DNA from: Bacteroidota bacterium | GTDB lineage: Bacteria > Bacteroidota > Bacteroidia > JACCXN01 | Length of the DNA stretch: 64,000 bases | Assembly: GCA_013696965.1 (NCBI GenBank) | Contig: JACCXN010000009.1 | Coordinates: 6,751 to 70,750 of the forward strand | Direction: 5' to 3' | In this document: one piece after another, positions 9,078 to 56,300 of the stretch | Numbering within the stretch: the first letter of the stretch is position 1 | Layout of the letters: the number at the start of each line of letters is the position of its first letter | Made by a program: the position numbers and the translations under genes | Notes under the pieces: model-generated | The model's database searches: none | Told to the model about the DNA's origin: nothing | What the model saw: the letters and a program-made list of their open reading frames with translations, nothing else

Positions 9078-12000
9078 TTATCGGAGCAAGGTAACATGTC
9101 CAGAAAAAACAAAAGAACGGTTAAAAACATTAGTAAGTGAAATAATATAAGAATAAACCTCCTGTTGAGCAGGAAGTTTTCCATTCTTAGCTCTTCCATC
9201 CCAACCGATTTCTTTATCTGTTGTTTTAAAAATCATTTCTCCCCACCGGTTGAAAATCAACATTTCGTACTCCCTTTCACCAATTATTATTGGCTTAAAT
9301 ACATCATTAAGTCCATCTGAGTCAGGTGTAAAGGCATTTGGAACATAAAACCGATATTCTGGGTTTACCCTAACAATTCCTGAAGCAGTATCGGGACATT
9401 CAAATTGGGAGTAAACTATTTGAGTTATTTGATAATCTCCGGTATCAGCATAGAAATATTCAACATCACATTGTGATGAAGTATTTCCATCTCCAAAATA
9501 ATAAATACACCTTGAATCTCCTTTTGATTCATTGGTTAAAATAAATTTAGGTTCAAATATGGACGCTTCAAGAGGAAGAATGGTAAAATTTGCTTCAGGG
9601 AAAGGATGAACAGTAACTAATCTAGGAATTGAAATTGAGGACGAATCAATACAACCAGTTTCCGTTTTTACAGTAAGGCTAACATCATAAGATCCTGGGT
9701 TGAAAAACATGTGTTCAGGACTTTTTTCATCTGATTTGTTTCCGTCTCCAAAATTCCAGAGATAAGTTAAAGGAGTTGCCGAAGTTGAGGCCTCTTTAAA
9801 TTCAACTTTCAAAGGCATGCACCCTGATTTTTCAATGAGTTCGAGGGCAGCAACCGGACTAAGAAGTAATTCAACATTGGCTGATTTAACAGAGGTACAA
9901 CCATTTTCCTGGATTATTAAATTAACATTAAATATACCCGGGGAATTAAAGAAAACATTAGGAACCGTTGCATTAGTTGAGCTCTGAATGTTAGCATCAG
10001 GGCCAAAGTCCCAGAAAAAGGAAGCCGTTTCACCAAATACTCCACCTGCTGCAAAGCTTAAATCATGTGCCTTGAAACACAGTACACCCGGATTAACAAA
10101 ATCAGTCTTTAGAAGCGGATAAATTGAAAAGGTTTGGGAAACTGTACTGGAACAAAACGGTCCTGTAGCTACAAGTGTAACCGTATACCATCCACTATCG
10201 GGATAAGTATAGGATGGTTCAAATTCAGTGGAGTAAGCTCCCGGGTTTGATGGATCCCCAAAAGTCCAGTAATAAGTATCGGCATTTTGACTTAAATTTG
10301 TAAAATCATAGGTATAGCCTCCACAAAAAACACGCTGCTGGTCAATATCAGCAACAGCATCGGGCACTACCACAACAGTTGAAGAAACTGTTCTACTGCA
10401 GCCATTTTCTATTATTGTTAATGAAACCTGAAATAAGCCAGTATCAGGAAAGACTATACCTGTGGGATCTTGCTGGTTTGATGCATTCGGATTGCCTTCA
10501 GGAAATGACCAGTTAAAATTTGCATTAGCTCCAAAACTTCCTCCGGCATTAAAACCAAAATAATTCCCTGTAAAACAGGAGGGATTTGGAGCAGAAATAA
10601 GAGGCTCAAGCAAGGGATAAACTTCATATGTTGAATAGGCAGTATCAGCACAGGAAGTATAAGGATTTGCAACTAGAGTTATGGTATAAATACCGCTTGA
10701 GGGGTAAGTAAAAGTTGGTGTGGCAAAACTAGAGGTATCGCTGGTAATTCCAGGAACCCCAAAATCCCACAAATAAGAATTTGCATTGAAACTGTTATTT
10801 GAAAAAGAAACAGTAAAACCATCACAAAATATAGCTTGAGCAGGAAATTCAGCAATAACATCAGGGATTACATTCACACTGCCAGTAACTGTTTTACTGC
10901 AACCATTTTCAGATATTGTTAATGACACTGGAAAAGTACCTATATCAGGAAAAGTAATTCCTGCAGGATTCTGCTGATTTGAATTAGAGGGAACCCCTGA
11001 TGAGAATGACCAGCTAAATTCCGCTGATGAACCGAATACCCCTCCAGCATTAAAACCAAAACTGTTACCAGTTAAACATAAAGGATCAGAGGTTAACAAA
11101 ATAGGCGCAAGCAAAGGTTGAACATCGAATGTGGAATAAGAAGTATCAGAACAGGATGTATATGGATTTGCAATAAGAGTTACAGTGTAAGTACCACTTG
11201 TTGGAAATGTAAAAATTGGTGTGGCAAGAACAGAGGTATCATTTGAAACTCCTACAACCCCAAAATCCCATAAAAAGGAACTCGCATTGAAACTGTTATT
11301 CTGAAAGGCGACATCAAACCCATTACAAAACAAAGTTTGTGAAGGAAATGCTGAAACTATAAGTCCGGGACAATTTATTACGTTGAACTGAAAATCCCTT
11401 ATTGTCCTGCTTAATAATACTCCATTTCTATATTCACTTACACAAATTCCAACAACCCATTGTCCTGTCAAATTTGGTCTTCCTATTAGCACACCTGTCT
11501 GGGGATTTATAGAAAGAACAGGGTTTGAACTCATTGGATAGGAGCCATTGTATGGAGGATTCCAATTCACATAATAATATGGTGGGGGCATTGGAGGATC
11601 GGGCATTGGATCCGTATTTGTTGCCCCGGCAAATGGATCACAAATTTCATAAACAAGTGAATCACCATCTATGTCAGTTGCAGAATGATCAAATTCAAGG
11701 GACATTCCATTGCAAAGAAAAATAGGTGGAAATTCTTTGTAAACAGGATTGCTGTTACATGTAGTAATAACTTCCGTCCCCGGGATATGAGCGGTAAAAG
11801 TAGCTCCGGTTGCACCTGGATCAACTAAATTTAATATAGTATTATTACGGCAACAGCGTTGATAGGTAATTGTATAACCTCCTGGAATAGGGGGCAAATT
11901 ATTAACTATTACAGTATAAATTGCTTCTTCTACACAGATATTACTTGGTGGTGAATAACAGGGGCTGTTAATTGTTGTAGCCAATTGAACAGATCCAGGA

Positions 12001-12239
12001 AAAGGAATATCAATATCTTTAATAAGTACATTGGCAGAGTTATAAATAGCAACATTGGCAGGATTGTCAAATGCAGCAGTTCCGGATTTACAATCCCTGT
12101 ACATTGCAATAGTAATCCTATAACTGTTGTTTCCCAGGCATTCATAGCTTACAACACCTCCAATTATATGTGTGGCTTTAATACTGAAGGAATTACCCAA
12201 CAATAAAAAAATAATACATATAAAATTCAGTTTCTTCAT
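9078..12239 (-). CDS. Large secreted surface protein: an N-terminal ~300-aa domain, four PKD-like modules (two highly similar and in tandem), and a T9SS type B CTD (CHU_C, the gliding-motility-associated C-terminal domain).
   Basis: Signal peptide MKKLNFICIIFLLLGNSFSIKA. The repeats FCNGFDVAFQNNSFNASSFLWDFGV… and FCDGFTVSFSNNSFNANSYLWDFGV… are each about 165 aa, with weaker copies at …YYWTFGDP… and …YLWNFGDGN…. The C-terminal YVPNAFTPDSDGLNDVFKPII…FNRWGEMIFK… matches the type B CTD. Confidence 0.8.
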   Translation of the reverse strand: MKKLNFICIIFLLLGNSFSIKATHIIGGVVSYECLGNNSYRITIAMYRDCKSGTAAFDNPANVAIYNSANVLIKDIDIPFPGSVQLATTINSPCYSPPSNICVEEAIYTVIVNNLPPIPGGYTITYQRCCRNNTILNLVDPGATGATFTAHIPGTEVITTCNSNPVYKEFPPIFLCNGMSLEFDHSATDIDGDSLVYEICDPFAGATNTDPMPDPPMPPPYYYVNWNPPYNGSYPMSSNPVLSINPQTGVLIGRPNLTGQWVVGICVSEYRNGVLLSRTIRDFQFNVINCPGLIVSAFPSQTLFCNGFDVAFQNNSFNASSFLWDFGVVGVSNDTSVLATPIFTFPTSGTYTVTLIANPYTSCSDTSYSTFDVQPLLAPILLTSDPLCLTGNSFGFNAGGVFGSSAEFSWSFSSGVPSNSNQQNPAGITFPDIGTFPVSLTISENGCSKTVTGSVNVIPDVIAEFPAQAIFCDGFTVSFSNNSFNANSYLWDFGVPGITSDTSSFATPTFTYPSSGIYTITLVANPYTSCADTAYSTYEVYPLLEPLISAPNPSCFTGNYFGFNAGGSFGANANFNWSFPEGNPNASNQQDPTGIVFPDTGLFQVSLTIIENGCSRTVSSTVVVVPDAVADIDQQRVFCGGYTYDFTNLSQNADTYYWTFGDPSNPGAYSTEFEPSYTYPDSGWYTVTLVATGPFCSSTVSQTFSIYPLLKTDFVNPGVLCFKAHDLSFAAGGVFGETASFFWDFGPDANIQSSTNATVPNVFFNSPGIFNVNLIIQENGCTSVKSANVELLLSPVAALELIEKSGCMPLKVEFKEASTSATPLTYLWNFGDGNKSDEKSPEHMFFNPGSYDVSLTVKTETGCIDSSSISIPRLVTVHPFPEANFTILPLEASIFEPKFILTNESKGDSRCIYYFGDGNTSSQCDVEYFYADTGDYQITQIVYSQFECPDTASGIVRVNPEYRFYVPNAFTPDSDGLNDVFKPIIIGEREYEMLIFNRWGEMIFKTTDKEIGWDGRAKNGKLPAQQEVYSYIISLTNVFNRSFVFSGHVTLLR

Positions 12240-12439: not shown

Positions 12440-13807
12440 ATGATAAAGGCATACATTCAGGCAAATAAAGACAGATTTATACAAGAACTTGTTGATTTAT
12501 TGAAAATTCCCTCTGTTAGTGCTGATTTAAAATACAAAGAACATATTAATCAGGCAGCCCTTATGGTTAGCCAAAGGTTAACTGAGGCAGGAGCAGATAA
12601 TGTGGAAATATGTGAAACCGCTGGCCATCCTGTTGTTTATGGACAAAAAATAATTGACCCTGAATTGCCTACTGTTTTAGTGTATGGCCATTATGATGTT
12701 CAACCTGCTGATCCAATTGAGTTATGGGATTCTCCTCCATTTGAACCAATAATAAAGGATGATAAAATATACGCACGTGGAGCTGCTGATGATAAAGGAC
12801 AGATTTATATGCATGTTAAGGCTTTTGAATTAATGATGAGAACGAATTCGCTCCCCTGCAATATTAAATTTATGATTGAGGGGGAAGAAGAAATTGGTTC
12901 TCAACATTTAGGTTTATTTATTCAGGCAAATAAAGAAAAACTTAAAGCGGATGTCATTCTTATTTCTGATACAAGTATTATAGCAAACGATGTTCCCTCA
13001 ATTACAGTAGGACTGAGAGGACTAAGTTACTTACAGGTAGAGGTTACGGGGCCGAATCGCGATTTACATTCGGGCCTTTATGGTGGAGCAGTTGCAAATC
13101 CTATTAATATTTTGTGTATAATGATTGCCTCTCTTGTAGATGAAAACAATCATATTGCTATACCTGGTTTTTATGATGATGTAATTGAATTATCCTCTGA
13201 AGAAAGAATGGAAATGGCCAAGGCACCTTTTGATTTAGAAGAATATAAAAAGGCCTTGGATCTAAAAGATATTCATGGTGAAAAAGGGTATACAACCAAT
13301 GAACGAGCATCTATAAGACCTACCATGGATGTAAATGGAATTTGGGGAGGTTATACTGGTGAGGGGGCAAAAACTGTTATTCCATCAAAAGCACATGCTA
13401 AAATATCGATGAGGCTTGTACCTGGTCAGGATCCTGATAAAATCACTCTATTGTTCAAAGAATATTTTGAATCCATTGCACCAAAATCAGTAAGGGTGAA
13501 AGTAGAGCCACATCATGGAGGAAAACCTTATGTTACTTCAATAGATTCTCCAGCTTACAAAGCAGCAATCAAGGCAATGGAAGTTACTTTCGGTAAAAAA
13601 CCAATTCCTGAAAGAAGTGGTGGAAGCATACCAATAGTGGCCCTTTTTAAAGAAGTTCTTGAGCTTGATTCAATAATGATGGGCTTTGGTCTTCACTCGG
13701 ATGCTATACATTCTCCAAATGAACATTTTGGTGTTTTCAATTATTTAAAAGGAATTGAAACTATCCCCTACTTTTTTCACTATTTCTCTGAACTTAACAA
13801 TAAATAA
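12440..13807 (+). CDS. M20/M25/M40-family metallopeptidase (dipeptidase/deacylase type).
   Basis: Motifs VYGHYDVQPAD, ARGAADDKGQ, IEGEEEIGS; length 455 aa. Confidence 0.9.
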   Translation: MIKAYIQANKDRFIQELVDLLKIPSVSADLKYKEHINQAALMVSQRLTEAGADNVEICETAGHPVVYGQKIIDPELPTVLVYGHYDVQPADPIELWDSPPFEPIIKDDKIYARGAADDKGQIYMHVKAFELMMRTNSLPCNIKFMIEGEEEIGSQHLGLFIQANKEKLKADVILISDTSIIANDVPSITVGLRGLSYLQVEVTGPNRDLHSGLYGGAVANPINILCIMIASLVDENNHIAIPGFYDDVIELSSEERMEMAKAPFDLEEYKKALDLKDIHGEKGYTTNERASIRPTMDVNGIWGGYTGEGAKTVIPSKAHAKISMRLVPGQDPDKITLLFKEYFESIAPKSVRVKVEPHHGGKPYVTSIDSPAYKAAIKAMEVTFGKKPIPERSGGSIPIVALFKEVLELDSIMMGFGLHSDAIHSPNEHFGVFNYLKGIETIPYFFHYFSELNNK

Positions 13808-13819
13808 AGTTTTTTAAGA

Positions 13820-13854
13820 GTTATTGCAGCACCAATATTTAATTCTGTAATAAC
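13820..13854 (+). terminator. Possible terminator hairpin after the M20 peptidase: 10-bp stem GTTATTGCAG/CTGTAATAAC with one G·U, a 15-nt loop and a weak U-tract.
   Basis: Inverted repeat 13 nt downstream of the stop codon, followed by CCACTTTTACTT. Confidence 0.3.
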
Positions 13855-14004
13855 CCACTTTTACTTATGAAATTGTAAGATAGCCACCATACACAAACAG
13901 GAATAAATTTAACATGGCTATTCAATATCAAAATTAAAAAACAAATGCTTTTGCATTCATGAGTTCCATAGAGGATTAATTAAAAAACGAATAAATTATA
14001 TACT

Positions 14005-14469
14005 ATGAAAAAGCCTGTTTTATATTTGTTTATTCTGCTTGCAGTTGTTTCATTTTCTGCATGCTCATCAATTGAACCTTTGAGTGTAAGTAAAGTTGAG
14101 AATATTAAACTTCAAAATTTCAGTAAAAATTCCCTTGCCCTGGAAGTTACTTTTATAATAAAAAACCCAAACCGCTACAAATTCAAAATTACAGACAATA
14201 ATTTCAACGTTTTTTTGAACAATGCAGAGTTAGGAACAGCAAAAATTAAAAAGAAATTAATCATTCCAAAAAAATCTGAGGATTCCTACACCTTTATTAT
14301 TGAAACACAATTCTCAAAATTGGCAATGGGAAGTATACCAAGCCTATTGAACATGTTCAGGACAAAACAGGTGGAATTTAAACTCATAGGCGAAGTAAAA
14401 GTTAAGACATTGGGGGTAGGCAAAAGATTCCCAGTTGAAATTGTTGAAAAAGTGGCTATTGGAAAATAA
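14005..14469 (+). CDS. Lipoprotein with an LEA14 / LEA_2-like (NDR1/HIN1-type) fold.
   Basis: Lipobox …SFSAC; the pattern …NPNRYKFKITDNNFNVFLNNAELGTAKIKKKLIIPKKSEDSYTFIIETQF is typical of LEA_2 beta-sandwich proteins. Confidence 0.5.
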   Translation: MKKPVLYLFILLAVVSFSACSSIEPLSVSKVENIKLQNFSKNSLALEVTFIIKNPNRYKFKITDNNFNVFLNNAELGTAKIKKKLIIPKKSEDSYTFIIETQFSKLAMGSIPSLLNMFRTKQVEFKLIGEVKVKTLGVGKRFPVEIVEKVAIGK

Positions 14470-14523
14470 ATAACAAAGAATTGTTATTCTCTAATTCGTT
14501 TCTAAAAAGGTGGCTTTGAAACA

Positions 14524-15741
14524 ATGAAAAATAAAAGCATTATAATTGTTGGAGCGGGTGCAGCCGGAATTTTTGCAGCAATAAACGCTGCAAAAAAAAA
14601 TCCTCAAATAGAGGTTACAGTGCTTGAAAAGTCTTCAAAATTATTGGCTAAGGTAAAGGTTTCAGGTGGCGGAAGGTGCAATGTTACCAATGCTTGCCAG
14701 GAGACAAAGGAACTAGTAAAAAACTACCCCCGGGGAAATAAAGAACTTGCCTTGTCTTTTTCAAAGTTCAATACAACCGACACTGTTAATTGGTTTTCAC
14801 AAAGAGGAGTAGAACTTAAAGCAGAAGCTGATGGCAGAATGTTTCCTCTCACCAACAGTTCGCAAACAATTATTGATTGCCTGCTTAAAGAATGTAAGGA
14901 TTTAGGAGTAAAAATATATACTAATTCAGATGTTAAATCGATAGTTAAAAAAGCAAATAGCTTTGACCTTTCTCTTGCTTCGGGACAAATCCTTGAATGC
15001 AATAAATTATTAATTGCAACTGGAGGAAGCAATAAAGCAGAATCTTATAAATGGCTTGAAGTTCTTGGGCATAGCATTGAGATTCCCCTCCCCTCTTTGT
15101 TCACTTTTAATATAAAGAATAATAGTCTTTCTCAATTAGCAGGTATTTCGGTTAAACTGGCCACTGTAAAAATTGCAGGAACAAAATTAATTCAAAAAGG
15201 CCCTGTACTTATAACCCATTGGGGATTAAGCGGGCCTGCAGTTCTTAAACTATCTGCGTGGGGAGCACGCATACTTTATGAAAAAAAATACATCTATACG
15301 GTATTAATTAACTGGCTTTTGGAGCAAAACGAAGAACAGGCCAGGGAATTTCTGGAAGAATACAAAACTGCAAACCCTTTAAAAAAAGTTTCAGGAACAT
15401 CTCCTGTTAATCTTCCTTTAAGACTATGGCAGTATTTGGTTTCAAAAGCAGAAATAGATGCAGAAACAAAATGGAACAATCTTTCGGGGAAAAATTTCAA
15501 TAGGTTAATAAATAATCTTGTTTGTGATGCATATGAAGCTTCAGGAAAAACAACATATAAAGAGGAGTTTGTTACCTGCGGAGGAATTAAACTAAATGAA
15601 GTAGACATGCAAACTATGGAAAGCCGTTTATGCAAAGGACTATTCTTTGCAGGTGAGGTAATAAATGTTGATGGAGTAACCGGAGGTTTTAATTTCCAGG
15701 CAGCATGGACAACAGGCTGGCTAGCATCCCAGGCAGTGTAA
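14524..15741 (+). CDS. HI0933-family NAD(P)/FAD-dependent flavoprotein (BaiN / aminoacetone-oxidase-like).
   Basis: N-terminal Rossmann motif IIIVGAGAAGIFAAINAAK and family signature KVSGGGRCNVTN; 405 aa. Confidence 0.85.
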   Translation: MKNKSIIIVGAGAAGIFAAINAAKKNPQIEVTVLEKSSKLLAKVKVSGGGRCNVTNACQETKELVKNYPRGNKELALSFSKFNTTDTVNWFSQRGVELKAEADGRMFPLTNSSQTIIDCLLKECKDLGVKIYTNSDVKSIVKKANSFDLSLASGQILECNKLLIATGGSNKAESYKWLEVLGHSIEIPLPSLFTFNIKNNSLSQLAGISVKLATVKIAGTKLIQKGPVLITHWGLSGPAVLKLSAWGARILYEKKYIYTVLINWLLEQNEEQAREFLEEYKTANPLKKVSGTSPVNLPLRLWQYLVSKAEIDAETKWNNLSGKNFNRLINNLVCDAYEASGKTTYKEEFVTCGGIKLNEVDMQTMESRLCKGLFFAGEVINVDGVTGGFNFQAAWTTGWLASQAV

Positions 15742-15798
15742 GGAACATTGCATTTTGAACATTGCTGCTTGTTTATTATGACTTGCTGCTAAAAACAC

Positions 15799-17187
15799 CT
15801 AGAACAATTGGTTATTCAGGTGTGTTTTATATCCCATTATGCCATTTCCAAACTTAATTCTAAGTGTTGTATATCCCTTTTCATATATAGTATCTGGAAT
15901 AGAGGATTTTTTCATTGTTCGAATCAATGGATATTTTCCATAGGAATCATTTTCTAATTGAAACACAATTTCTTCACCCCGGTTTATTATGTTAATAATT
16001 TTATGATCTTCCACAACAATACCACTACTTACAAGAAAATTTGTTAAAAAAAACAGGCACAGTACAGCTGGCATAATTCCAAAAAAAGCATAAAGCACAA
16101 AGTCCATGGGCTTTAGAATATTGTTATTAATTACCAGATACCGATACTGAAAAAGTGTGGCCAAGACTGCTCCAATCAATGCAATTTTCACTAAATCTTC
16201 AATTGGTATAATGGTAAAAGACGGGAAAAGCATCATGGTAATAATGCCCAGGAATATGCCAAATAACATTACAGAATAGGTCCAGTGCCAGGTGTGGTAT
16301 TTGTAATTCTTTTTTATTGTTTTTGGAATTGGAATTAATCGTGCATTCCTGTTAACACTTTCCAAAAAATTTACATTGAGCATGTAATTGCTGTTATTAT
16401 TTAGTGGATCCTGATTGAGTAAAAAACATAGGTGATTGTAAATATCCGGTAGTTCCTCCTTGAAAGAAAGGGGATTTTCAAAAAAATGTTCTATACATAC
16501 TGCGAAAAATTCATGTCTGTTTGTTCCACCGTATTCCCTTAATAGAGATTTATTTTTTCTTTGAAGCCTTGCAAATTCTGTTTTGCCAATTTTAAGCCAT
16601 TCATCCAGATAAAAAGAAAATTTTTCATCAAAATGCTTTCCCTTTAAAACGTTAATCTTAAGGACATGGGCCATTTCATGCAAACCCAGGTTATAATTGT
16701 CATGCGGGTATTTATAGCCTTTTAAAAAATCTTCCCATGAAATCATTAGAACTCCTTTATTTGAAGCACCACCTTTTATCTCCGCCTGCAAAAGTTTTGA
16801 ATAAAAATAACGTGGGTAAATTTTAATTGTAGTAAAAAAATCCAATAAAAATTCATCCAGGCCAAAAGTAAGCTGAATGGCTGAAGCCGAAATTAAAACC
16901 TTCATTTCATTTGTAACCTTTAGTTTTTCCATCCCCTGAAATTTCTTTAATCTGATAAAATCCACTAACCTGGCCATAAATTTTACTTTTCCTTCCTTAT
17001 TCAAATTTGTGTAATATTGAAAGTATCGGGATAATATTTCATCGTATTGGGAATAATCAGAAAAATTAAAGGATGAATACTGGATTGCTTTTTTTTTGAC
17101 TAAATTCAAAATGCTATCCCTGAACTCTGTAAGTGAGAGCATAATTAGGGAAATAGCAGCAAAAAAAACCAGGTAGGGTAATATCAT
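15799..17187 (-). CDS. Membrane-anchored MtfA-like (peptidase M90) zinc peptidase fused to a C-terminal polytopic membrane domain.
   Basis: HExxH zinc motif HEMAHV plus YGGTNRHEFFAVCIEHFFENP, which matches the MtfA family. The N-terminus has a TM helix and the C-terminal ~160 aa hold 3-4 predicted TM helices. Confidence 0.6.
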   Translation of the reverse strand: MILPYLVFFAAISLIMLSLTEFRDSILNLVKKKAIQYSSFNFSDYSQYDEILSRYFQYYTNLNKEGKVKFMARLVDFIRLKKFQGMEKLKVTNEMKVLISASAIQLTFGLDEFLLDFFTTIKIYPRYFYSKLLQAEIKGGASNKGVLMISWEDFLKGYKYPHDNYNLGLHEMAHVLKINVLKGKHFDEKFSFYLDEWLKIGKTEFARLQRKNKSLLREYGGTNRHEFFAVCIEHFFENPLSFKEELPDIYNHLCFLLNQDPLNNNSNYMLNVNFLESVNRNARLIPIPKTIKKNYKYHTWHWTYSVMLFGIFLGIITMMLFPSFTIIPIEDLVKIALIGAVLATLFQYRYLVINNNILKPMDFVLYAFFGIMPAVLCLFFLTNFLVSSGIVVEDHKIINIINRGEEIVFQLENDSYGKYPLIRTMKKSSIPDTIYEKGYTTLRIKFGNGIMGYKTHLNNQLF

Positions 17188-17328
17188 GCATTGAATATAT
17201 ATAAAAAAAACGAATTGTTAAAAAATTTCAAAAATAATAACAGGAGTTTTTAACTAGAAATTAATGCGTTTTTTTTATTAAATTTAACTATTGAAATTTC
17301 AGAAAAATCAAAATGTAAAACTATTTTT

Positions 17329-19365
17329 ATGGGGAAAGAAACGACATTTACAAATAGGCTTGCAGAGGAAACAAGTCCTTATCTTTTACAGCATGCACAC
17401 AATCCTGTTGATTGGTTTCCCTGGAGTGATGAGGCTTTTGAAAAAGCAAAGAAAGAGGATAAACTAGTTTTGGTTAGTATAGGATATTCAGCCTGTCATT
17501 GGTGCCATGTTATGGAGCGGGAATCTTTTGAGAATCAAGAAACAGCAAGATTAATGAATGAAAAGTTTATTTGTATTAAAGTTGACCGTGAAGAAAGACC
17601 AGATGTTGATCAGGTATATATGACAGCTGTTCAATTAATGACAGGTACTGGTGGATGGCCTTTGAATTGTTTTACCCTCCCTGATGGAAGACCAGTTTAT
17701 GGAGGCACCTATTTCTCACCAGAGGATTGGAAAGCGGTTATCAATGATCTTTCTGAAGTATATAAAACTCAACCTGAAAAAGTACTTGAATATGCAGAAA
17801 AGTTGACGCAAGGGGTTCATTCAAGTGATTTTGTTCAGGTGAATACAAAAGCTCCTGAATTTACTATAGATACATTAAAAAGTGCAGTAAGAAAATGGTC
17901 GAAAAAATTCGACCGAATTGAGGGAGGTACCACACATGCACCAAAATTCCCTATGCCAAACAACTACTTGTTCCTTCTTCAATATGGGTATTTAAGCAAA
18001 GATGAACAAGTAAACAATTATGTAAAAACCTCACTTGAGAAAATGGCAATGGGTGGAATTTATGATCAGGTAGGGGGAGGTTTTTCACGGTATTCAACAG
18101 ATATGCTATGGAAAGTTCCACATTTTGAAAAAATGCTATATGACAACGCTCAACTTGTAAGTTTGTATTCGGAGGCATATCAGGCTGAAAAAAATCCGTT
18201 GTATAAACAAATAGTTTACGAAACAATTGAATTTGTAACCCGGGAATTAACAGCGGCAAATGGTGCTTTTTATTCCGCACTCGATGCCGATACTGAGGGT
18301 GAAGAAGGCAAGTATTATGTTTGGAAAAAAAACGAATTGGAAAACCTGTTAGGAACAAATTTTAAAACTGCCGTTGAATATTACAATATCAACAATTATG
18401 GAAAATGGGAAGATGGTTTTATTTTGTTAAGAAGGCATAGTGATGAGTATGTATCAAAAAAACTCAACATTGGTTTAGATGAGTTACAAAAGCAGGTGAA
18501 AGACATTAAATCTGTGCTTTTTCAGGCAAGGGAAAAAAGAACCAAGCCAGGTCTTGATGACAAATCTTTGACCTCCTGGAATGCTTTAATGCTAAAAGGT
18601 TTTACTGATGCATACAAAGTTTTTGGAGAACAGGAGTTTTTATTTGCTGCACTTAAAAACGCGAATTTTATTTCCGGTACTCAAAAGACTACTGATGGAG
18701 GATTATACCACAATTACAAAGAAAACAAATCAACGATAAACGGATACCTGGAGGATTATGCATTCACCATTGAAGCTTTTATAAGCCTATATGAAGTAAG
18801 CTTTGACATCCAATGGCTGGAAAAAGCAAAAGAGTTGATGGAATATACAATTGATAATTTCTATAACACGGAAAATGGGATGTTCTATTTTACTTCAAAA
18901 AAAGACAAGCCATTAATTTCCCGTAAAATGGAAATTACTGATAACGTAACTCCTGCATCAAATTCAAGCATTGCAAAATCTTTGTTTATGCTGGGGAAAT
19001 ATTACGAAAATGAAAAATATGCATCCATGTCTAGCAAAATGCTTAACAACATAAAGGATGAATTGGTTGAATTTGGAGCTAGTCATAGCAATTGGGCTAT
19101 TTTGATGCTTTATTATACTATGCCGTTTTTTGAAATTGTAATAATGGGGGTTGATGCTGAATTTAAAAGACAAGAACTCTCCAATTATTATATCCCTAAC
19201 AAAATTCTTGCAGGCGGAACACAGGAAAGCCATTTGCCGCTTTTCACAGACCGCCATATTCATGATAAAACAACTATTTATGTTTGTGTAAACCAGTTTT
19301 GTAATCTTCCGGTTAACGATATTAATGATGCTGTTAAGCAAATAGATGAATTGTTGGGTGGATAA
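17329..19365 (+). CDS. Thioredoxin-domain (DUF255 / YyaL) protein with a six-hairpin glycosidase-like C-terminal domain.
   Basis: N-terminal …[46 protein letters not shown]… is the DUF255 thioredoxin-like signature; 678 aa, as in YyaL/SPATA20-like proteins. Confidence 0.85.
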
Positions 19366-19501: not shown

Positions 19502-20986
19502 TTAAAAAAAATCTTCTTTGGGTAAACTAAATGTAATTGTTGTTCCTTTCTCTTCTTCACTTTCAATGGTAATTTTCCCTTTATGCTTTTCAACAAAGCT
19601 TTTTACAAGTGTTAAACCTAATCCGCTGCCAGCTTCATTTTCTGTCCCTATTGATGTTGGGAATATATTTTCCCTAAATAAATTATCTCTAATTTGAGCA
19701 GTCATTCCAACTCCGGTATCTTTAATTTTTATCTCAACCCTTTCGCCTTTAACCTGCGCATCTACTGTTATTTTCCCATATTTAGGGGTGAATTTTATGG
19801 CATTGGTTATTAAATTTTGAATTATTGAGCGCAGCATATTTATATCGGCTTTAACTCTAATTTCAGCACTAACATGGTTATTGATTTGAATTTCTTTCTT
19901 CTGTGCTAACTCCCTGATTAATTTTATGGAATCTTCAACTGCCCCGTATAATTCAATTTTTTTAGGTAAAAAGATTATTTTATTCTGCTGTGATTTAGCC
20001 CAATCTACTAATTCATCAAATTGCTTTACTAGTTTATTCGTTGAATTGTTTATTACCAGGGCCATTTGTTGAATGTCATTTAAGTCCATTTTATAAATAT
20101 TTTTAGCTAAAATCTCGGAAGAACCTGCCATTGCTGCGAGGGGATTTTTTAGATCATGAGAAATTACTTGAATGAATTTATCCTTGCCTTTATTGAGTTC
20201 CTGCAATTCGAAATTTACATTTTCAAGCTCCAGGGTTCGCGCCTCCACCCTTTTTTCCAGTTGCTCATTCATTTTTTTTAGTTCTTCCTGTGATATTTTT
20301 AAAAGGCGATAATCATTGCTTATTCTTTTGTACATTCTAATAAGGAAAAAGGTCATAAAAAACACCGTGAGTATTCCAATGGCAATAAGACAATTACTGA
20401 TTTGTTTAAATCCATTGATTTTAGCAATTGATTTATTGGTTTCATATTCAGCATCTTTAATCATTAGGTCTGAAAGTTCATCCAGTTCAGTTATATAAAT
20501 GTCAAAATAAGGCCTTATTTGCTGCTTTTCATAATTTATTGGAATAGAAAGGGCTTCCCTATTACTCAATGAAATTCCTTCATTCAATTTCTGCAAATAT
20601 TTATCCCTTGCTCTTTTAGCATCATCAAATTTATTTCTTACTAAAGGATCTACAATTGAAATAGGGAGATCAACATAAAGTTCAAAACTTTCCTGAAGCA
20701 TTCCATGCAACTCTTGTTCTAATAAAAACTTTTCCTTTATATCAGTTTCATCTAAATGATGTAGCAAATATATTTCCTGTAAGCCTGCATTGAGCTGAAT
20801 TTTTCCAATTGAAGAAAGTTGTTCCAGTGAGGTTCGCTTTAAAAATTCTATTGCTCTTTTATAATTCTGAATACTTAAATAATTATAAATGGCGACTGTA
20901 ATTAACAGTGTTGTAATTATTATGAAGATAAAAAGAATTTGTTTTCTAATTGAAAATCCTCTTGTTTGTATATCCTTAAATATCAT
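19502..20986 (-). CDS. Membrane sensor histidine kinase: two TM helices flanking a ~150-aa periplasmic domain, then a coiled-coil, HisKA and HATPase_c.
   Basis: H-box ISHDLKNPLAAMAGSSEIL; ATPase …NAIKFTPKYG…DTGVGM…GSGLGLTLVKSFVEKHKG. Confidence 0.85.
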   Translation of the reverse strand: MIFKDIQTRGFSIRKQILFIFIIITTLLITVAIYNYLSIQNYKRAIEFLKRTSLEQLSSIGKIQLNAGLQEIYLLHHLDETDIKEKFLLEQELHGMLQESFELYVDLPISIVDPLVRNKFDDAKRARDKYLQKLNEGISLSNREALSIPINYEKQQIRPYFDIYITELDELSDLMIKDAEYETNKSIAKINGFKQISNCLIAIGILTVFFMTFFLIRMYKRISNDYRLLKISQEELKKMNEQLEKRVEARTLELENVNFELQELNKGKDKFIQVISHDLKNPLAAMAGSSEILAKNIYKMDLNDIQQMALVINNSTNKLVKQFDELVDWAKSQQNKIIFLPKKIELYGAVEDSIKLIRELAQKKEIQINNHVSAEIRVKADINMLRSIIQNLITNAIKFTPKYGKITVDAQVKGERVEIKIKDTGVGMTAQIRDNLFRENIFPTSIGTENEAGSGLGLTLVKSFVEKHKGKITIESEEEKGTTITFSLPKEDFF

Positions 20987-31813: not shown

Positions 31814-34800
31814 TCAATAACTAAGATTGCTACTTAGCCATTTTTCAATTTCAGTTACAGGCATGTTTTTTCTTTTAGAATAATTTTCAACCTGTTCTTT
31901 TGTAATTTTTCCAAGGCCGAAATATTGGGATTCAGGATGAGAAAAATACAAACCAGAAACCGAAGAAACAGGATACATTGCCATGCTTTCTGTAAGATTA
32001 ATCCCTGTTGTTTTCTCTACTTCAAAAAGTTTGAATTGCAATACTTTTTCTGTATGGTCAGGACAGGCAGGATAACCTTGTGCTGGCCTAATTCCCCGGT
32101 AATTTTCTTTAATAATGCTTTCCTTATCCAGCTCTTCATCCTTTGCATAACCCCAAAACTCTTTCCTTACTTTAAGATGCATTAATTCTGCAAAGGCCTC
32201 TGCAAGACGATCGGCAAGAGCTTTTAACAGTATTGAATTGTAATCATCATGATCTTGTTCAAATTGCTGCACCCATTTTTCCATGCCAATACCAGTAGTT
32301 ACAGCAAATCCTCCAATATAATCAGTTACACCGGAATCTTTTGGAGCAATAAAATCAGACAAAGCAAGATTACTATGGCCCTGAGGTTTCAAAGTCTGCT
32401 GCCTAAGGGTATGTAACACTGTTTTAACTTTCCCAGATGGCTCATCATCATAAATAATAATATCATCATTTGTGGAATTAGCAGGATAAAAACCTACTAC
32501 GGCATTGGCTTGTATCCATTTCTCATTAATAATCCTTGAAAGCATCAGCTTTGCATCATTATACAATTTTGTTGCTTCCATTCCTTTTTCAGGATCGCTT
32601 AAAATTTTAGGATAACTTCCCTTCATCTCCCAGGTATGAAAAAATGGAGTCCAGTCAATAAATTCAGCAATTTGATCTAAGGGAAAAGCTTCGAAAAATT
32701 TATTCCCTATAAAAGCAGGTTTTTGTATTTGTGTTTGTTCCCAATTAATTTTAAGTTTATTTCTGCGTGCCTGATCCAAAGAAATGAATTTAACAGCTGA
32801 ATGCGCATTCTTGTTTGCTTCCCTTAATCGTTCATATTCAACATTTGTCTTTTCCAAAAAATCAGCCCTCAAGTGATCAGATAATAAAGTGCTGGCAACA
32901 GTAACACTCCTTGATGCATCGTTTACATGAACAACAGGCAAAGAGTAACAGGGAGCTATTTTAACAGCTGTATGAACCTTTGAAGTAGTTGCCCCGCCAA
33001 TTAACAAAGGCACCTTGAATCCTTGTCTTTGCATTTCTTTGGCAACATGTACCATTTCATCAAGAGATGGAGTAATTAAACCACTCAAACCAATAATATC
33101 AACATTTTCTGCCCTTGCAGCCTCCAGAATTTTTTCGGCAGGAACCATTACCCCCAAATCAATTATTTCGAAATTATTGCAAGCAAGCACCACCCCTACT
33201 ATGTTTTTTCCTATATCATGCACATCCCCTTTCACAGTAGCTAAAAGCACTTTCCCTGCATTTTTTGAAACATCGCTTGCTGATTTTTCTGCCTCAAGAA
33301 AGGGGAGTAAATAAGCCACTGCTTTTTTCATTACCCTGGCGCTTTTTACAACCTGTGGTAAAAACATTTTTCCTGATCCAAACAAATCCCCAACCACATT
33401 CATTCCCTCCATCAAAGGCCCTTCAATAATATGCAAGGACCTGTCAAATTTCTTCCTTGCTTCATCTAAATCTTCTTCAATATAATCTACCACGCCCTTT
33501 ACCAAAGAATGTGTGAACCTTTCTTGCAAATCAAGTTTTCTCCAGGACAAATCCTTTTCTATCTTTTTTCCTTCTCCTTTTAGCGTTTCTGCATAGGTAA
33601 CCAGCGTTTCTGTTGCATCCTCTTTTCGGTTCAATAAAACATCTTCTACTAGTTCAAGTAATTCTTTTGGAACCTGGTCATAAACCTGCAACATTCCAGG
33701 ATTTACTATTCCCATATCCATTCCCGCTTTAATTGCATGATAAAGAAAAGCAGAATGAATGGCCTCTCTCATTAAATCATTGCCACGAAACGAAAAAGAA
33801 ACATTACTTACTCCCCCACTTACTTTTGCTAATGGAAGATTCTTCTTTATCCATTTTGTAGCGTTAAAAAAATCAAGTGCATTTAATTTATGTTCATCCA
33901 TTCCTGTTGCAACAGGAAAGATGTTTGGATCAAAAATTATATCCTGGGCAGGAAAGTTAAGTTTATCTACCAAAATAGAATAAGCTCTGCTGCATATTTC
34001 TATTCTTCGCTCGTAGGTATCAGCCTGGCCTTTTTCATCGAAGGCCATTACGATTACTGCTGCTCCGTATCTTTTTACTTTAAGGGCCTGATCAATAAAC
34101 ACTTTCTCTCCCTCTTTCAAACTTATGGAATTAACAATTCCTTTACCCTGTACACATTTCAAACCTGCTTCAATCACATTCCATTTTGAAGAATCAATCA
34201 TAATTGGAAGTTTGGAAATATCAGGTTCTGCAGCAATAAGGTTAAGAAATTTTACCATCGCAGCTTCAGAATCAATCATACCTTCATCCATGTTCACATC
34301 AATAACCTGTGCGCCACCTTCAACCTGGTCTCTGGCAATGGCAAGGGCACCCTCATAATCCCCTGAAGTAATTAATTTAGCGAATTTCCTTGAACCAGTA
34401 ATATTAGTTCTCTCACCTACGTTCATGAAATTGCTTTCCTTTCGCATTGTTACGGGCTCTAATCCACTTAACCTTAACAAAGATTCAATAGCAGGTACAA
34501 TCCGGGGCTTACCTTTAGCAGCAGCTTCAGCAATATGCCTGATGTGATCAGGAGTTGTTCCGCAGCAGCCTCCCACAATGTTTACAAATCCACTTGAAAT
34601 AAAATCATGAATATGCCCGCACATATCAGAAGGAGATTGGTCATACTCACCAAATTGATTTGGCAATCCGGCATTTGGATATGCACTGATATAAAATGGT
34701 GATTTTTGTGAAAGCTCTTCAATATAAGGGCGCATATCAGCTGCTCCAAGTGCACAATTCAATCCTATACTAAGCAAACCTAAATGAGATACTGAATTAA

Positions 34801-35479
34801 TAAAAGCCTCAACTGTTTGTCCGGACAATGTTCTTCCACTGGCATCTGTTATAGTTCCAGAAACCATTACAGGAAGTCTCTTTCCACAAAATTCGAAATA
34901 GCTATCAAGGGCATAAAGGGCTGCTTTGCAATTCAGGGTGTCAAAAACAGTTTCTATCAAAACTAAATCTACCCCTCCCTCTATTAGTCCTTTGGCTTGA
35001 ACAGTATATGCATCAACCAATTCATCAAATGTAACTGCACGATATCCCGGATCATTTACATCAGGAGACATAGAGGCTGTGCGATTAGTGGGGCCAATAG
35101 CCCCAGCTACAAAACGTGGTTTATCTGGATTTAACAGTGTAAATTCTACTGCTGCCTTTTTTGCTATAACTGCAGAATTAAAATTAAGTTCATAAGCAAG
35201 TTCTTGCATATCATAATCTGCAAGGGAAATAACATTGGCATTAAAAGTATTGGTTTCAATAATATCTGCCCCGGCATTAAGATATGCTTTGTGGATGGCC
35301 TCTATAATTTCGGGTTGGGTGAGTGATAAAAGATCATTATTACCTTTAATATCTTTATGAAAATTTTTAAATCTTTCTCCACGGTAATCTTGTTCTGTTA
35401 ACCTGTAATCCTGAATCATGGTACCCATTGCACCATCAATTACAAGTATCCTTTTTTCTAATTCTTTATTTATATTCAC
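31814..35479 (-). CDS. metH: Cobalamin-dependent methionine synthase with all modules: Hcy-binding, pterin-binding, B12-binding and AdoMet activation.
   Basis: N-terminus [25 protein letters not shown]…; cobalamin-binding DxHxxG region (…[15 protein letters not shown]…); 1221 aa. Confidence 0.95.
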
Positions 35480-53358: not shown

Positions 53359-56300
53359 TTAAGAAAGTGTAAACCTTAAACTAATTCCTGCATTGGTGTT
53401 TGATGAAGGAAACGAGTTTGTAATTACTGGTGAGGTAAGTATTTTATCAAAGAATAAACGAAGATTAACCCTGGAGTTAAGCACATAATCTGCAGCTAAT
53501 TTAATTGAAATAATTCGCTGGCCTCCGGTTGGTTGATGTAAATTATCATCTATTGACCTCATCATAATTCTATTGTCCCTTACCGATATATCTGCCCTGC
53601 AATTCAAATCACTTTGAACTTTTGTTTTTGTAGGACCTATTTTGAATGGGAAAGGAACATTTTTAAACCTATATCCAAAACCAACTATAACTTCATTCCC
53701 TTTGCTTTCCTGTAATCTGTTATCGGTAAAGTTAAAAGCAAGGTTCCTGTCACGTTTTAGTTCAATACGAGTAATTAAACTGTTGTGCCAGGTCATGTCC
53801 ATATTTATTAAAGGACTGAATTGTTCTGTAATTGAAATTTGAGCAATCTGAAATTGAGGAATGTAATTATCATTGATATCCATTTTATCTGTATAACCTG
53901 GTCCTGCATTTTCTACAAAAAGCATATTGGTTGAATAGGAGCCAATATTGTATGAGGAGCGGTAAGCATGACTTAATGTAAATGACTTGAAATATTTTTT
54001 AAACAAGTCCAGTTTAGATAAACCATCATATGTTATCCTCCAGTTAGGCTTAGGTATTTTAGGCATAAGGCTGGTGGAAGCTGAATTAGCATCAGTGCCG
54101 GAATAAGCAGCAAGGAAAGCAGGAATTAATACATCCTGAGAAGTAGCACCATAACCTTCCCTGTAACCATCCTGGTTTACACCCACCGGAAGCCCTGTTT
54201 CTGCTTCCCTTTCATTTGCTAATTTGTTTGAAATTGCAATTCGGTTATCCATGAATTGCTGGAAAACAGGTGATGATCCATCTTCCAGATCCCTTATAAA
54301 TGAAGTATTCCAACTCACATAAGACATGCTAAAGTTGCCAGTCTCCATGCGGCTTTCCCTTACAAATTCACCTAAATCATCATTCCACCTTATAAACTCC
54401 GAATTACTTTTACCAACGTTCCTTGTAACATTAAGCTCCAGGCGCAAATCTTTAAGAGGCTCTATATTCGTTCTTGCATTAAAGTTTTTACTGTTTGTTG
54501 TTGCATATGGTGTCATAAGCAATGATTCTTCCATAAGCCACCCCTCTCGCACAGCTCGCATTGCAAAACTTGTATCCTGGTGACCAGAAATAAAACCCCA
54601 TCCTGGTGCATTGAAATTATCCATTCCAAGGAGTGTGGTTGGTTTAGAATAACCTGGCAAAATTGTTCCTGAATTGTCTGTATAAGTGAAAGATGCATTC
54701 TTTACACTCATTATCACTCTTGCTGATTGTTCGTAAATATTAAATTTATTCGGATCTTTTTCCTTTTCTTTTCCTTTTAAGCTATCTGGAAGGGCGGGCT
54801 TTGGAACAGGTGGCTTAGGAGCCTGGCGGGCACCTCCTTTTCCTGAATACTTTTGGTTGACTTTCTTTAAATAAGGTACTTTGTTATAAAGTGTTAAAAA
54901 ATTAAACTGTCCGTTCCATTGTTCTGATCGTGAATTTTTAATTGTATTTCCAAGTTCATTGGCAGCAAAAGGGGCCCTCATCCAATCATATGTTCCTCCG
55001 ATACGTGTAGTTAAATTAACCCAATCAGTGAGTGGAAATTTATTTATTGGCCAGGTATAATTCAAATTCATAGCATGGTTATACAAAACATTGGTTCCTA
55101 ATTCTTTTAGACTTTGATTTATTGAATCCTTTTTTTCCTGGGTATCTATTTTACCGTCCGGCTCCATGATCCTTGCATTGTTGGTGGCAGTAAAATCAAA
55201 TTTCAATGATTTGGTTATATCATGTCTTACTTCATACATCCTTGTCATTGTGAAGTTTTTATTAAAGGTGGGAGGTATTACATAATCAGCGAATCCACTG
55301 TTATTTCTTATCTGTACTTCGTTAAACATCCTGTCTAGGCTAGTAGAGAAGGACAGCCTGCTTGGCATTAAATTGAAATTAAAATCAGTGATGAGCTTAG
55401 CATATTTAGATTTATTAAGCAATTTAGATTTTGAAAAAGGCTTGATGTTTTTTGGCGAAGTGGAAAAACTATACATTACAGCACCACGATAAAGCTTGGT
55501 TTCATTGTATTCTGTATTAATGTCACGCTTAAATATTTCATTGTAAGAGTAGGTGAAGGATAAATTTTCCACATCATATATCCTGCTTTTAGAGGCTCCC
55601 TTGCCTTTTTCTTTTTTTACATTGGCAAAATTGATGCTTCGTCTGCGGGTGTAGTCCTGTACCGATTCCTTAATTGAATCCCTTACTGATTTATCATCGA
55701 TTTTCAAAAGATCATCAAATTCAATATCCGGGTCATTTGGATGAAATTGGGGATTAATAAAACCTTCGGAATAACCAAGGAACATAGGGATACTTAAATT
55801 AAAATTCTCAGGTAAAAGTCTGCCCATTCTGAAATTACCAGAAAGATCATAGGATCTAATATCTGCCCTTTGTCTTTCACTGATCTTCTTTTCTATTGAA
55901 CCAAAGCCAGGAGTACTCATATTTCCGGCAACGGTTACATCTCCAAAATCAGCAAGCTTTGCAGATACTCTTCCTGTAGTTGCCCATCCATTTCTTTTAT
56001 CAAAATCCGAGAGCCTTAACTCATTCACCCATATTTCAACACACTTAGCAAAGCCATCATCACTGTCATCTGTTCCTTCTTTTTTAGGATTTCTAACCCC
56101 AATCATAATTGAACTGATTTCACTTAACTGAGGATTTCCCACTACAGCTAATACATGTTCCCCATTTTTTCGTGTATAAGGAATATTAAAAGGTACCTGG
56201 GCTGCATTTCTGTCCAGTTTAAGGGCTGTAAGCAATTCAAAAGGAAGATCAATTTCATTTATAAGCGGCCAAACTTTAATTCTATCTGCCTCCGAATCAC

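Follow-up and report, generated by a model that had tools for sequence, protein, structure and literature searches.

An M90-family zinc peptidase joined to a three-helix membrane module with a C-terminal beta domain in Bacteroidota

We analyzed a 64,000-nucleotide stretch of DNA from a Bacteroidota bacterium (GenBank assembly GCA_013696965.1, contig JACCXN010000009.1, positions 6,751 to 70,750 of the forward strand), hereafter the window, with a focus on a single gene for a membrane-associated zinc peptidase of the M90 family. The gene lies at positions 15799-17187 on the minus strand, coordinates that are exact in the list of open reading frames (ORFs), and encodes a protein of 462 amino acids (aa) with its stop codon at 15799-15801. 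A protein identical to it (P0001) carries the NCBI name 'zinc-dependent peptidase' and comes from a Bacteroidetes metagenome-assembled genome (MAG). No further copy of the M90 domain or of the C-terminal module described below was found elsewhere in the window. A preliminary description of the locus had called the product an MtfA-like M90 peptidase with an N-terminal transmembrane (TM) helix and a polytopic C-terminal segment, and had proposed for it an anti-sigma-like role in the proteolysis of a membrane-tethered regulator.

The window protein matched the Pfam model Peptidase_M90 (PF06167) with 134.1 bits and an E value of 7.9e-39, against a gathering score of 26.2, over profile positions 18-238 of 243. 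Its sole other Pfam match, to ATLF, was weak (23 bits) and below cut-off. Searches with phmmer matched the protein to the solved MtfA sequences of Klebsiella (3dl1 and 3khi) and E. coli (9srw), and the resulting alignment placed H170 and H174 on the histidines of the HEVAH motif of MtfA and E226 on the zinc-ligand glutamate of the ECFA motif. The latter is the EXXA motif as defined for MtfA, where the zinc-ligand glutamate is E211 in E. coli numbering (PMC13482132). In the window gene the zinc-binding and catalytic motif HEMAH (H170, E171 and H174) is encoded at 16666-16680 and the third zinc ligand, E226 of the gluzincin-type sequence EFFA, at 16510-16512, both on the minus strand as are all segments of the gene given below. 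In an alignment of 30 full-length homologues with 31-67% identity (alignment A1), H170, E171, H174, E226 and E233 are invariant, and an HExxH motif was found in 86 of 86 M90 ORFs of related loci.

The structural evidence points the same way. An AlphaFold2 model of the full protein was built on the 30 homologues with a mean predicted local distance difference test score (pLDDT) of 89.9 and a predicted template-modelling score (pTM) of 0.76. Compared by Foldseek with Klebsiella MtfA (3dl1), the fold gave an E value of 7.4e-10, a probability of 1.00 and a TM-score of 0.79 normalised by target. Because of the profile score, the zinc-ligand alignment and the superposition of the model on Klebsiella MtfA, membership of the M90 family is secure: the family profile, the gluzincin zinc site (HExxH plus the ExxA glutamate) and the MtfA-type fold are all present. 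With its active site intact, the window protein is predicted to be a catalytically competent M90 gluzincin. The hidden Markov model search that the preliminary description had proposed as a check on its M90 call thus confirmed that call, and the two sequence features it had singled out as M90 hallmarks, HEMAHV (residues 170-175) and the NRHEFFAVCIEHFFENP block (residues 223-239), are indeed those of the family.

The peptidase is flanked by hydrophobic helices. TM1, the N-terminal membrane anchor, covers aa 2-18 (17134-17184) within a hydrophobic helix of aa 1-19; it has a Kyte-Doolittle hydropathy of 2.38 and is helical in the model, in agreement with the helix claimed earlier. No basic n-region precedes TM1, and a stretch rich in lysine and arginine (K/R) follows it. 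The Peptidase_M90 catalytic domain, predicted to be cytoplasmic, spans aa 47-253 (16429-17049) by its PF06167 match and about aa 42-280 in structural extent, as judged by hydropathy and the AlphaFold2 layout. It is followed by a conserved linker (aa 254-301; 16285-16428) made up of LLNQDPLN, a P-x-P segment and a basic patch and ending in the WHW motif (W300-H301-W302), which lies at the predicted cytoplasmic entry of TM2.

The C-terminal module then begins with three helices (aa 302-385; 16033-16284) that have hydropathy peaks of 2.22, 1.77 and 2.46 and are placed by the Kyte-Doolittle scan and the AlphaFold2 model at 302-323 (TM2), 329-354 (TM3) and 360-385 (TM4), with N383 close to the outer end of TM4. 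It ends in a beta domain of about 75 aa (aa 387-462; 15802-16029; beta-rich over 387-461) that is predicted to be periplasmic, carries a G449-x-x-G452 motif and resembles an oligonucleotide/oligosaccharide-binding (OB) fold at best. Modeled separately, the module reached a pLDDT of 90.8. The C-terminal segment had earlier been described as some 160 aa with three to four TM helices; that it spans the membrane is supported, but it consists of three helices and then the beta domain. W302, N383, G449 and G452 are nearly invariant among the 30 homologues and, as far as the alignment shows, conservation covers the entire architecture, peptidase and module alike.

To place this architecture, one genome per GTDB species was scanned and relatives were found in at least 571 species-representative loci, of which the best 80 were classified with our own profiles. 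The fused form seen in the window accounts for 52 of these 80 loci. Eleven carry a short form consisting of TM1 and M90, and another eleven have a different C-terminus of two TM helices and a soluble domain of about 100 aa, three of them assigned from TM positions only. A divergent form of the three-helix and beta-domain extension was present in four loci, and the M90 gene was truncated in one locus and frameshifted in one. All of the best 80 loci come from Bacteroidota MAGs, with submitter labels Flavobacteriales, Cryomorphaceae, Vicingaceae, Chitinophaga and Bacteroidia. Named members are likewise all from MAGs, and no cultured host species was found, including in a search with a divergent member.

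The peptidase and the module also occur as separate genes. The short relatives P0098 (298 aa) and P0100 (285 aa) consist of TM1 and M90 and end at the linker. At the locus of P0098 (L005), a module ORF of 191 aa lies 16 bp upstream of the short gene on the same strand, and its product has the WHW motif, three TM segments, the TM4 asparagine and a GILGY motif. L023 and L090 each have a stand-alone module gene immediately upstream of a fused one. That the peptidase and the module are found fused, split and side by side is an argument for their acting together. Furthermore, paralogues with different modules occur within one MAG (L037 with L068, and L069 with L075). Since the C-termini are swappable, being two TM helices with a soluble domain, a divergent three-helix form or no extension at all, the C-terminal part is likely to be a regulatory or targeting module.

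Several other features of these relatives were recorded. The two-helix architecture was seen at L035:4905-6278, L052:4887-6182, L066:4851-6209, L067:4839-6173, L068:4887-6296, L075:4824-6188, L083:4737-6242 and L088:4983-6269, and it has recurring 'FYxNGI' and 'KKxAVKL' motifs. Its sole Pfam match, to DUF6585, was weak (E 0.002) and below cut-off. In the two MAGs with paralogues named above, it is this form that shares the genome with the three-helix form. At L028:4827-6243 and L058:4827-6185 the M90 gene is split over two or three adjacent frames, which represent either frameshift pseudogenes or assembly errors.

A profile of the module alone, made from alignment A2, was used for an exhaustive search of 1.84 billion representative proteins. 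It matched 806 representative clusters at E <= 1e-3 and 333 at E <= 1e-10. Among the best 150 of the 806 matches about half are stand-alone proteins of 160-240 aa (about 190 aa) and the remainder are M90 fusions of 420-490 aa; matches of intermediate length are N-truncated fusions. No Pfam or NCBIfam model covers the module even at permissive thresholds (E up to 10 for the module and up to 5 for 26 members). The stand-alone proteins have no informative name, all being unnamed or 'hypothetical'. A homologue search using the module alignment gave no matches; as the exhaustive search with this profile did find the 806 clusters, the probable cause is that word seeding works poorly for so divergent a membrane profile. 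Foldseek matches of the beta domain were to OB folds only, weak and not significant.

The module thus exists on its own as well as behind M90, with invariant motifs of its own (WHW, N383 and GxxG). It is an autonomous and undescribed membrane module, and because some 800 clusters contain it, fused and alone, with no Pfam or NCBIfam model, we consider it a candidate new domain family. A single fusion partner other than M90 was seen, in P0164 (1663 aa; NCBI PCI31418.1, partial), which comes from an Elusimicrobia MAG and so from a host outside Bacteroidota. Here the module is at the C-terminus, residues 1481-1659, and the protein is without any Pfam domain.

The orientation of the protein in the membrane was addressed from the charges that flank its helices. 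Across the 30 homologues the net K/R charge is +1.9 after TM1 and +3.1 before TM2, the latter positive in 97% of sequences, with -0.6 in the loop between TM2 and TM3 and +1.3 in the loop between TM3 and TM4. These alternating charges would fit the positive-inside rule for an N-out orientation. Stand-alone copies of the module carry K/R-rich N-terminal tails. Additionally, TM1 is present in 33 of the 52 fused loci, and in 15 of the 52 there is no space for it, as fewer than 25 residues lie ahead of the M90 profile in the stop-to-stop reading frame. Because neither TM1 nor a signal peptide is possible in those 15 relatives, their M90 domain must be cytoplasmic. Since the flank charges, the basic tails of the stand-alone modules and the TM1-less relatives agree, we infer that the peptidase is inside and the beta domain outside. 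In the window protein the peptidase would then be cytoplasmic and tethered to the membrane at both ends, with the beta domain in the periplasm.

The M90 gene is divergent from a gene for a thioredoxin-domain protein of the DUF255 (Thioredox_DsbH) family (17329-19365, plus strand; PF03190, E 1.5e-70), from which it is separated by an intergenic region of 141 bp (17188-17328). This neighbor had been pointed out in the preliminary description, and it is recurrent. Among the best 80 of the at least 571 loci, 24 have a DUF255 gene upstream of, and divergent from, the gene for M90 or the module, and the same holds for L005, L089, L090, L091 and L092; a LEA_2 gene recurs in 20 of the 80 and an M20 dipeptidase gene in 19. 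In the window the M20 dipeptidase (12440-13807, plus strand) is recognized by Pfam and by NCBIfam PRK08201 (573 bits against a cut-off of 441) and the LEA_2 protein (14005-14469, plus strand) by Pfam, and a gene for an HI0933-like flavoprotein (14524-15741) separates the M90 gene from LEA_2.

The recurrent arrangement is, in order, DUF255 pointing away, the M90 or module gene pointing onward, and then LEA_2 and M20 dipeptidase both facing back toward it, and it is kept to about 34% M90 identity. Between DUF255 and LEA_2 the slot may hold the fused gene, the short gene, a module with M90 or the module alone. Because the strands alternate, the set is no operon. Scans for promoters and terminators around the M90 gene gave no match above shuffled controls. 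The M90 and DUF255 genes might share regulation or be linked in function, and we treat the synteny as a lead, perhaps to an envelope or redox theme, rather than as evidence of function.

Further observations concern the same neighborhood. The order DUF255, M90, LEA_2 and M20 extends over 12440-19365 in the window and was also seen at L023, L025, L026, L033, L037, L041-L043, L045, L049, L050, L069, L076, L078 and L092. Often the block continues with TsaD, a giant PKD/CHU_C protein and a gene of about 290-330 aa that runs in the same direction as DUF255. At L089:4001-4609 and L091:4001-4597 the slot is filled by a stand-alone module alone and the M90 gene is missing locally. Tandem duplications occupy it at L076:4773-7053 (short M90, then fused M90) and at L023:4860-6867 and L090:4001-5992 (stand-alone module, then fused gene). 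The LEA_2 protein of the window has a lipoprotein-like signal, a hydrophobic segment ending in ...FSAC, and looks like an envelope lipoprotein; it had no NCBIfam match. The sole regulator-type gene that the window shows beyond DUF255 encodes a sensor histidine kinase (19502-20986, minus strand), convergent with the DUF255 gene. Its best NCBIfam matches, of 146-148 bits, are all below equivalog cut-offs, and it lies outside the conserved synteny of the other loci. The window also contains very large minus-strand ORFs at 53359-60609 (2416 aa), 31814-35479 (1221 aa) and 9078-12239 (1053 aa).

Our preferred reading, which we hold with about even confidence, is that the window protein is a cytoplasm-facing membrane M90 peptidase that is controlled or targeted by its module of three TM helices and a beta domain. 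TM1 would run from outside to inside, leaving the M90 domain and the basic linker in the cytoplasm, and TM2-TM4 would cross the membrane three times to place the beta domain in the periplasm. The active site would then be on the cytoplasmic side, near the membrane. The module, supplied fused or as a separate and often adjacent gene, would work together with the peptidase in one of two ways. It may pass on a cue, from the periplasm or the membrane, to a peptidase kept inactive until then, or it may recruit substrates, with the enzyme cutting cytoplasmic or membrane-proximal peptides or protein termini. We infer a physical interaction between the two parts and a regulatory role for the module, along with these putative substrates. 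In favor of this reading, stand-alone modules and the fusion gene occupy one and the same slot between DUF255 and LEA_2.

A more specific version, in which the module is a widespread Bacteroidota sensor or adaptor that switches on an M90 peptidase in cis or in trans upon an envelope cue, is speculative and we regard it as doubtful. Were it true, the M90 family, for which no natural substrate is known even in the case of E. coli MtfA, would gain a first physiological context, and transmembrane sensor-proteases made of one or two pieces would form a new class. In that case the pairing with DUF255 and LEA_2 would suggest a circuit for envelope or redox stress.

It is important to realize what weighs against a controlled or targeted peptidase. 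Its topology is a prediction. A module with no M90 gene nearby occurs at L008, L089 and L091 and a short M90 gene with no module nearby at L006, L047 and L080, and because of such loci neither part strictly requires the other in cis. The recurrent neighbors DUF255, LEA_2 and M20 are on opposite strands and none is a regulator, and in other subclades and distant relatives the arrangement is entirely absent and the neighbors are unrelated. No conserved partner-regulator or substrate gene was found adjacent in the annotated loci, that is, the 16 related loci whose neighbors were annotated by Pfam. No significant structural or sequence match pointed to a ligand of the beta domain, and the literature yielded no experimental data on any member of the fused family.

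The main rival reading is a constitutive housekeeping peptidase of the membrane, in which the TM helices and beta domain would be a mere anchor or stabilizer with no signal input. Such an enzyme would trim or degrade peptides or protein termini at the inner membrane face, in HtpX-like quality control or in peptide catabolism. No conserved regulator or partner gene accompanies the gene, which is widely conserved in Bacteroidota (the at least 571 species representatives) and often has an M20 dipeptidase gene near it (19 of 80 loci). The active site is always intact, and short forms of TM1 and M90 exist. A mere anchor, however, would not be expected to form a conserved stand-alone family with motifs of its own (WHW, N383 and GxxG), nor to be exchanged among paralogues of one genome. 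We therefore consider the housekeeping role possible but lean away from it.

Four other readings are each contradicted by specific tests. The role proposed in the preliminary description, cleavage of a membrane-tethered regulator (for instance an anti-sigma factor) within a dedicated cascade, is unlikely. A cytoplasmic anti-sigma domain would in principle be within reach of the cytoplasmic active site of a membrane zinc protease, and E. coli MtfA does act on a transcription regulator, by binding (PMC13482132). However, in none of the 16 annotated loci was a sigma-70 or extracytoplasmic function (ECF) sigma factor, an anti-sigma factor or a recurrent DNA-binding regulator found beside the gene; the single AsnC-type gene, in L006, is not recurrent. 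Linked ECF sigma and anti-sigma genes are absent from the flanks of the gene in the window as well.

Still less probable is an exported peptidase, in which TM1 would serve as a signal peptide or N-in signal anchor and the M90 domain would work in the periplasm, leaving the beta domain cytoplasmic. The N-terminal hydrophobic segment would allow it, and M90 does occur in other multi-domain contexts, for instance in the annexin fusions of Haliangium (PMC3894181). Yet TM1 has no basic n-region before it, the strong charge bias alternates in the opposite sense, 15 of the 52 fused relatives are without an N-terminal hydrophobic segment and the stand-alone modules have basic N-tails.

We judge an NfeD-like system to be just as improbable, namely a protease with TM helices and a C-terminal OB domain that acts on a scaffold of the SPFH/stomatin type. 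Long forms of NfeD are fused to a ClpP-like serine protease, short stand-alone forms consist of TM helices and an OB domain, and the partner is an SPFH/stomatin-type scaffold. The likeness lies in this parallel layout, with TM helices and a small beta barrel both alone and behind a protease, and in the weak, OB-only matches of the beta domain. In the window protein, in contrast, the protease is an M90 zinc enzyme, and neither its sequence nor, at a significant level, its structure resembles NfeD: the NfeD Pfam model did not match the module, the OB-like Foldseek matches were not significant and NfeD was not among them, and no Band_7/SPFH gene neighbors the gene in any annotated locus.

Finally, it is scarcely credible that the protein is an MtfA orthologue proper, titrating an Mlc-like ROK repressor that acts on sugar uptake by the phosphotransferase system (PTS): the Pfam family, the fold and the JGI names of relatives are in common, but it is a 462-aa integral membrane protein with 41.5 bits to the MtfA equivalog model against the 400 required and about 20% identity, and no ROK or PTS gene was found in any neighborhood examined.

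M90 peptidases have been known for some 20 years through E. coli MtfA. In Bacteroidota they are mainly integral membrane proteins with interchangeable C-terminal membrane modules. In view of these membrane forms, 'Mlc titration factor' describes a lineage-specific use of the fold, and the JGI name 'ptsG expression regulator' is misleading. Relatives are named either 'zinc-dependent peptidase' or, by JGI, 'Mlc titration factor MtfA'; the full JGI form, 'Mlc titration factor MtfA (ptsG expression regulator)', is an over-annotation. As to whether the architecture is already well annotated, a point on which the preliminary description had made its novelty depend, it is common (52 of 80 loci), yet its names are generic only and its module has no Pfam or NCBIfam model. 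The fused architecture is widespread in uncultured Bacteroidota, generically annotated and uncharacterized in the searchable literature. A protease joined to an unknown membrane domain is, as a layout, unsurprising to a specialist. Because the genes occur both fused and split, they lend themselves to testing whether the peptidase is regulated by the module. Practical use is so far limited, since all named members that were found come from uncultured MAGs.

The closest known system is MtfA/YeeI (Mlc titration factor A; MEROPS M90; PDB 3dl1, 3khi and 9srw), which has the family, the fold and the HExxH plus glutamate site in common with the window protein. Soluble and monomeric, E. coli MtfA binds the Mlc dimer by wedging itself between the DNA-binding domains, and the natural substrate of M90 peptidases, its own included, is still unknown (PMC13482132). 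MtfA has about 265 aa, whereas the window protein, from Bacteroidota, has 462, contains four TM helices and carries an additional 175-aa module; its 41.5 bits are to the NCBIfam equivalog NF011939, and its identity to Klebsiella MtfA is structure-based. These differences support the earlier suggestion that its role departs from that of the soluble enterobacterial MtfA.

The catalytic domain of anthrax lethal factor (M34) and the PPEP Pro-Pro endopeptidases are remoter structural relatives of the M90 core (Foldseek E 5e-3 to 3e-2). They are secreted toxins or endopeptidases with no membrane module, and their scores are below family thresholds. In Haliangium, M90 is fused to annexin repeats in proposed toxins, an architecture that differs from that of the window protein (PMC3894181). 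A paper on Svx cites MtfA merely for comparison, and we found no paper on membrane-bound M90 proteins.

BlaR1 and MecR1 (MEROPS M56) are integral membrane proteins in which a cytoplasm-facing HExxH zinc protease sits between TM helices and is followed by an extracytoplasmic C-terminal domain. The likeness of the window protein is in overall layout only and is an analogy, its own layout being predicted from charge bias and TM1-less relatives. It has no Peptidase_M56 match, and neither the window nor the 16 annotated related loci contain a BlaI/MecI-type repressor gene. Its outside part would be the 75-aa beta domain, where BlaR1 and MecR1 have a penicillin-binding domain. If the module does relay a cue to the peptidase, the signaling logic would be like that of these sensor-proteases, carried out by an M90 domain and with no dedicated repressor gene next to it.

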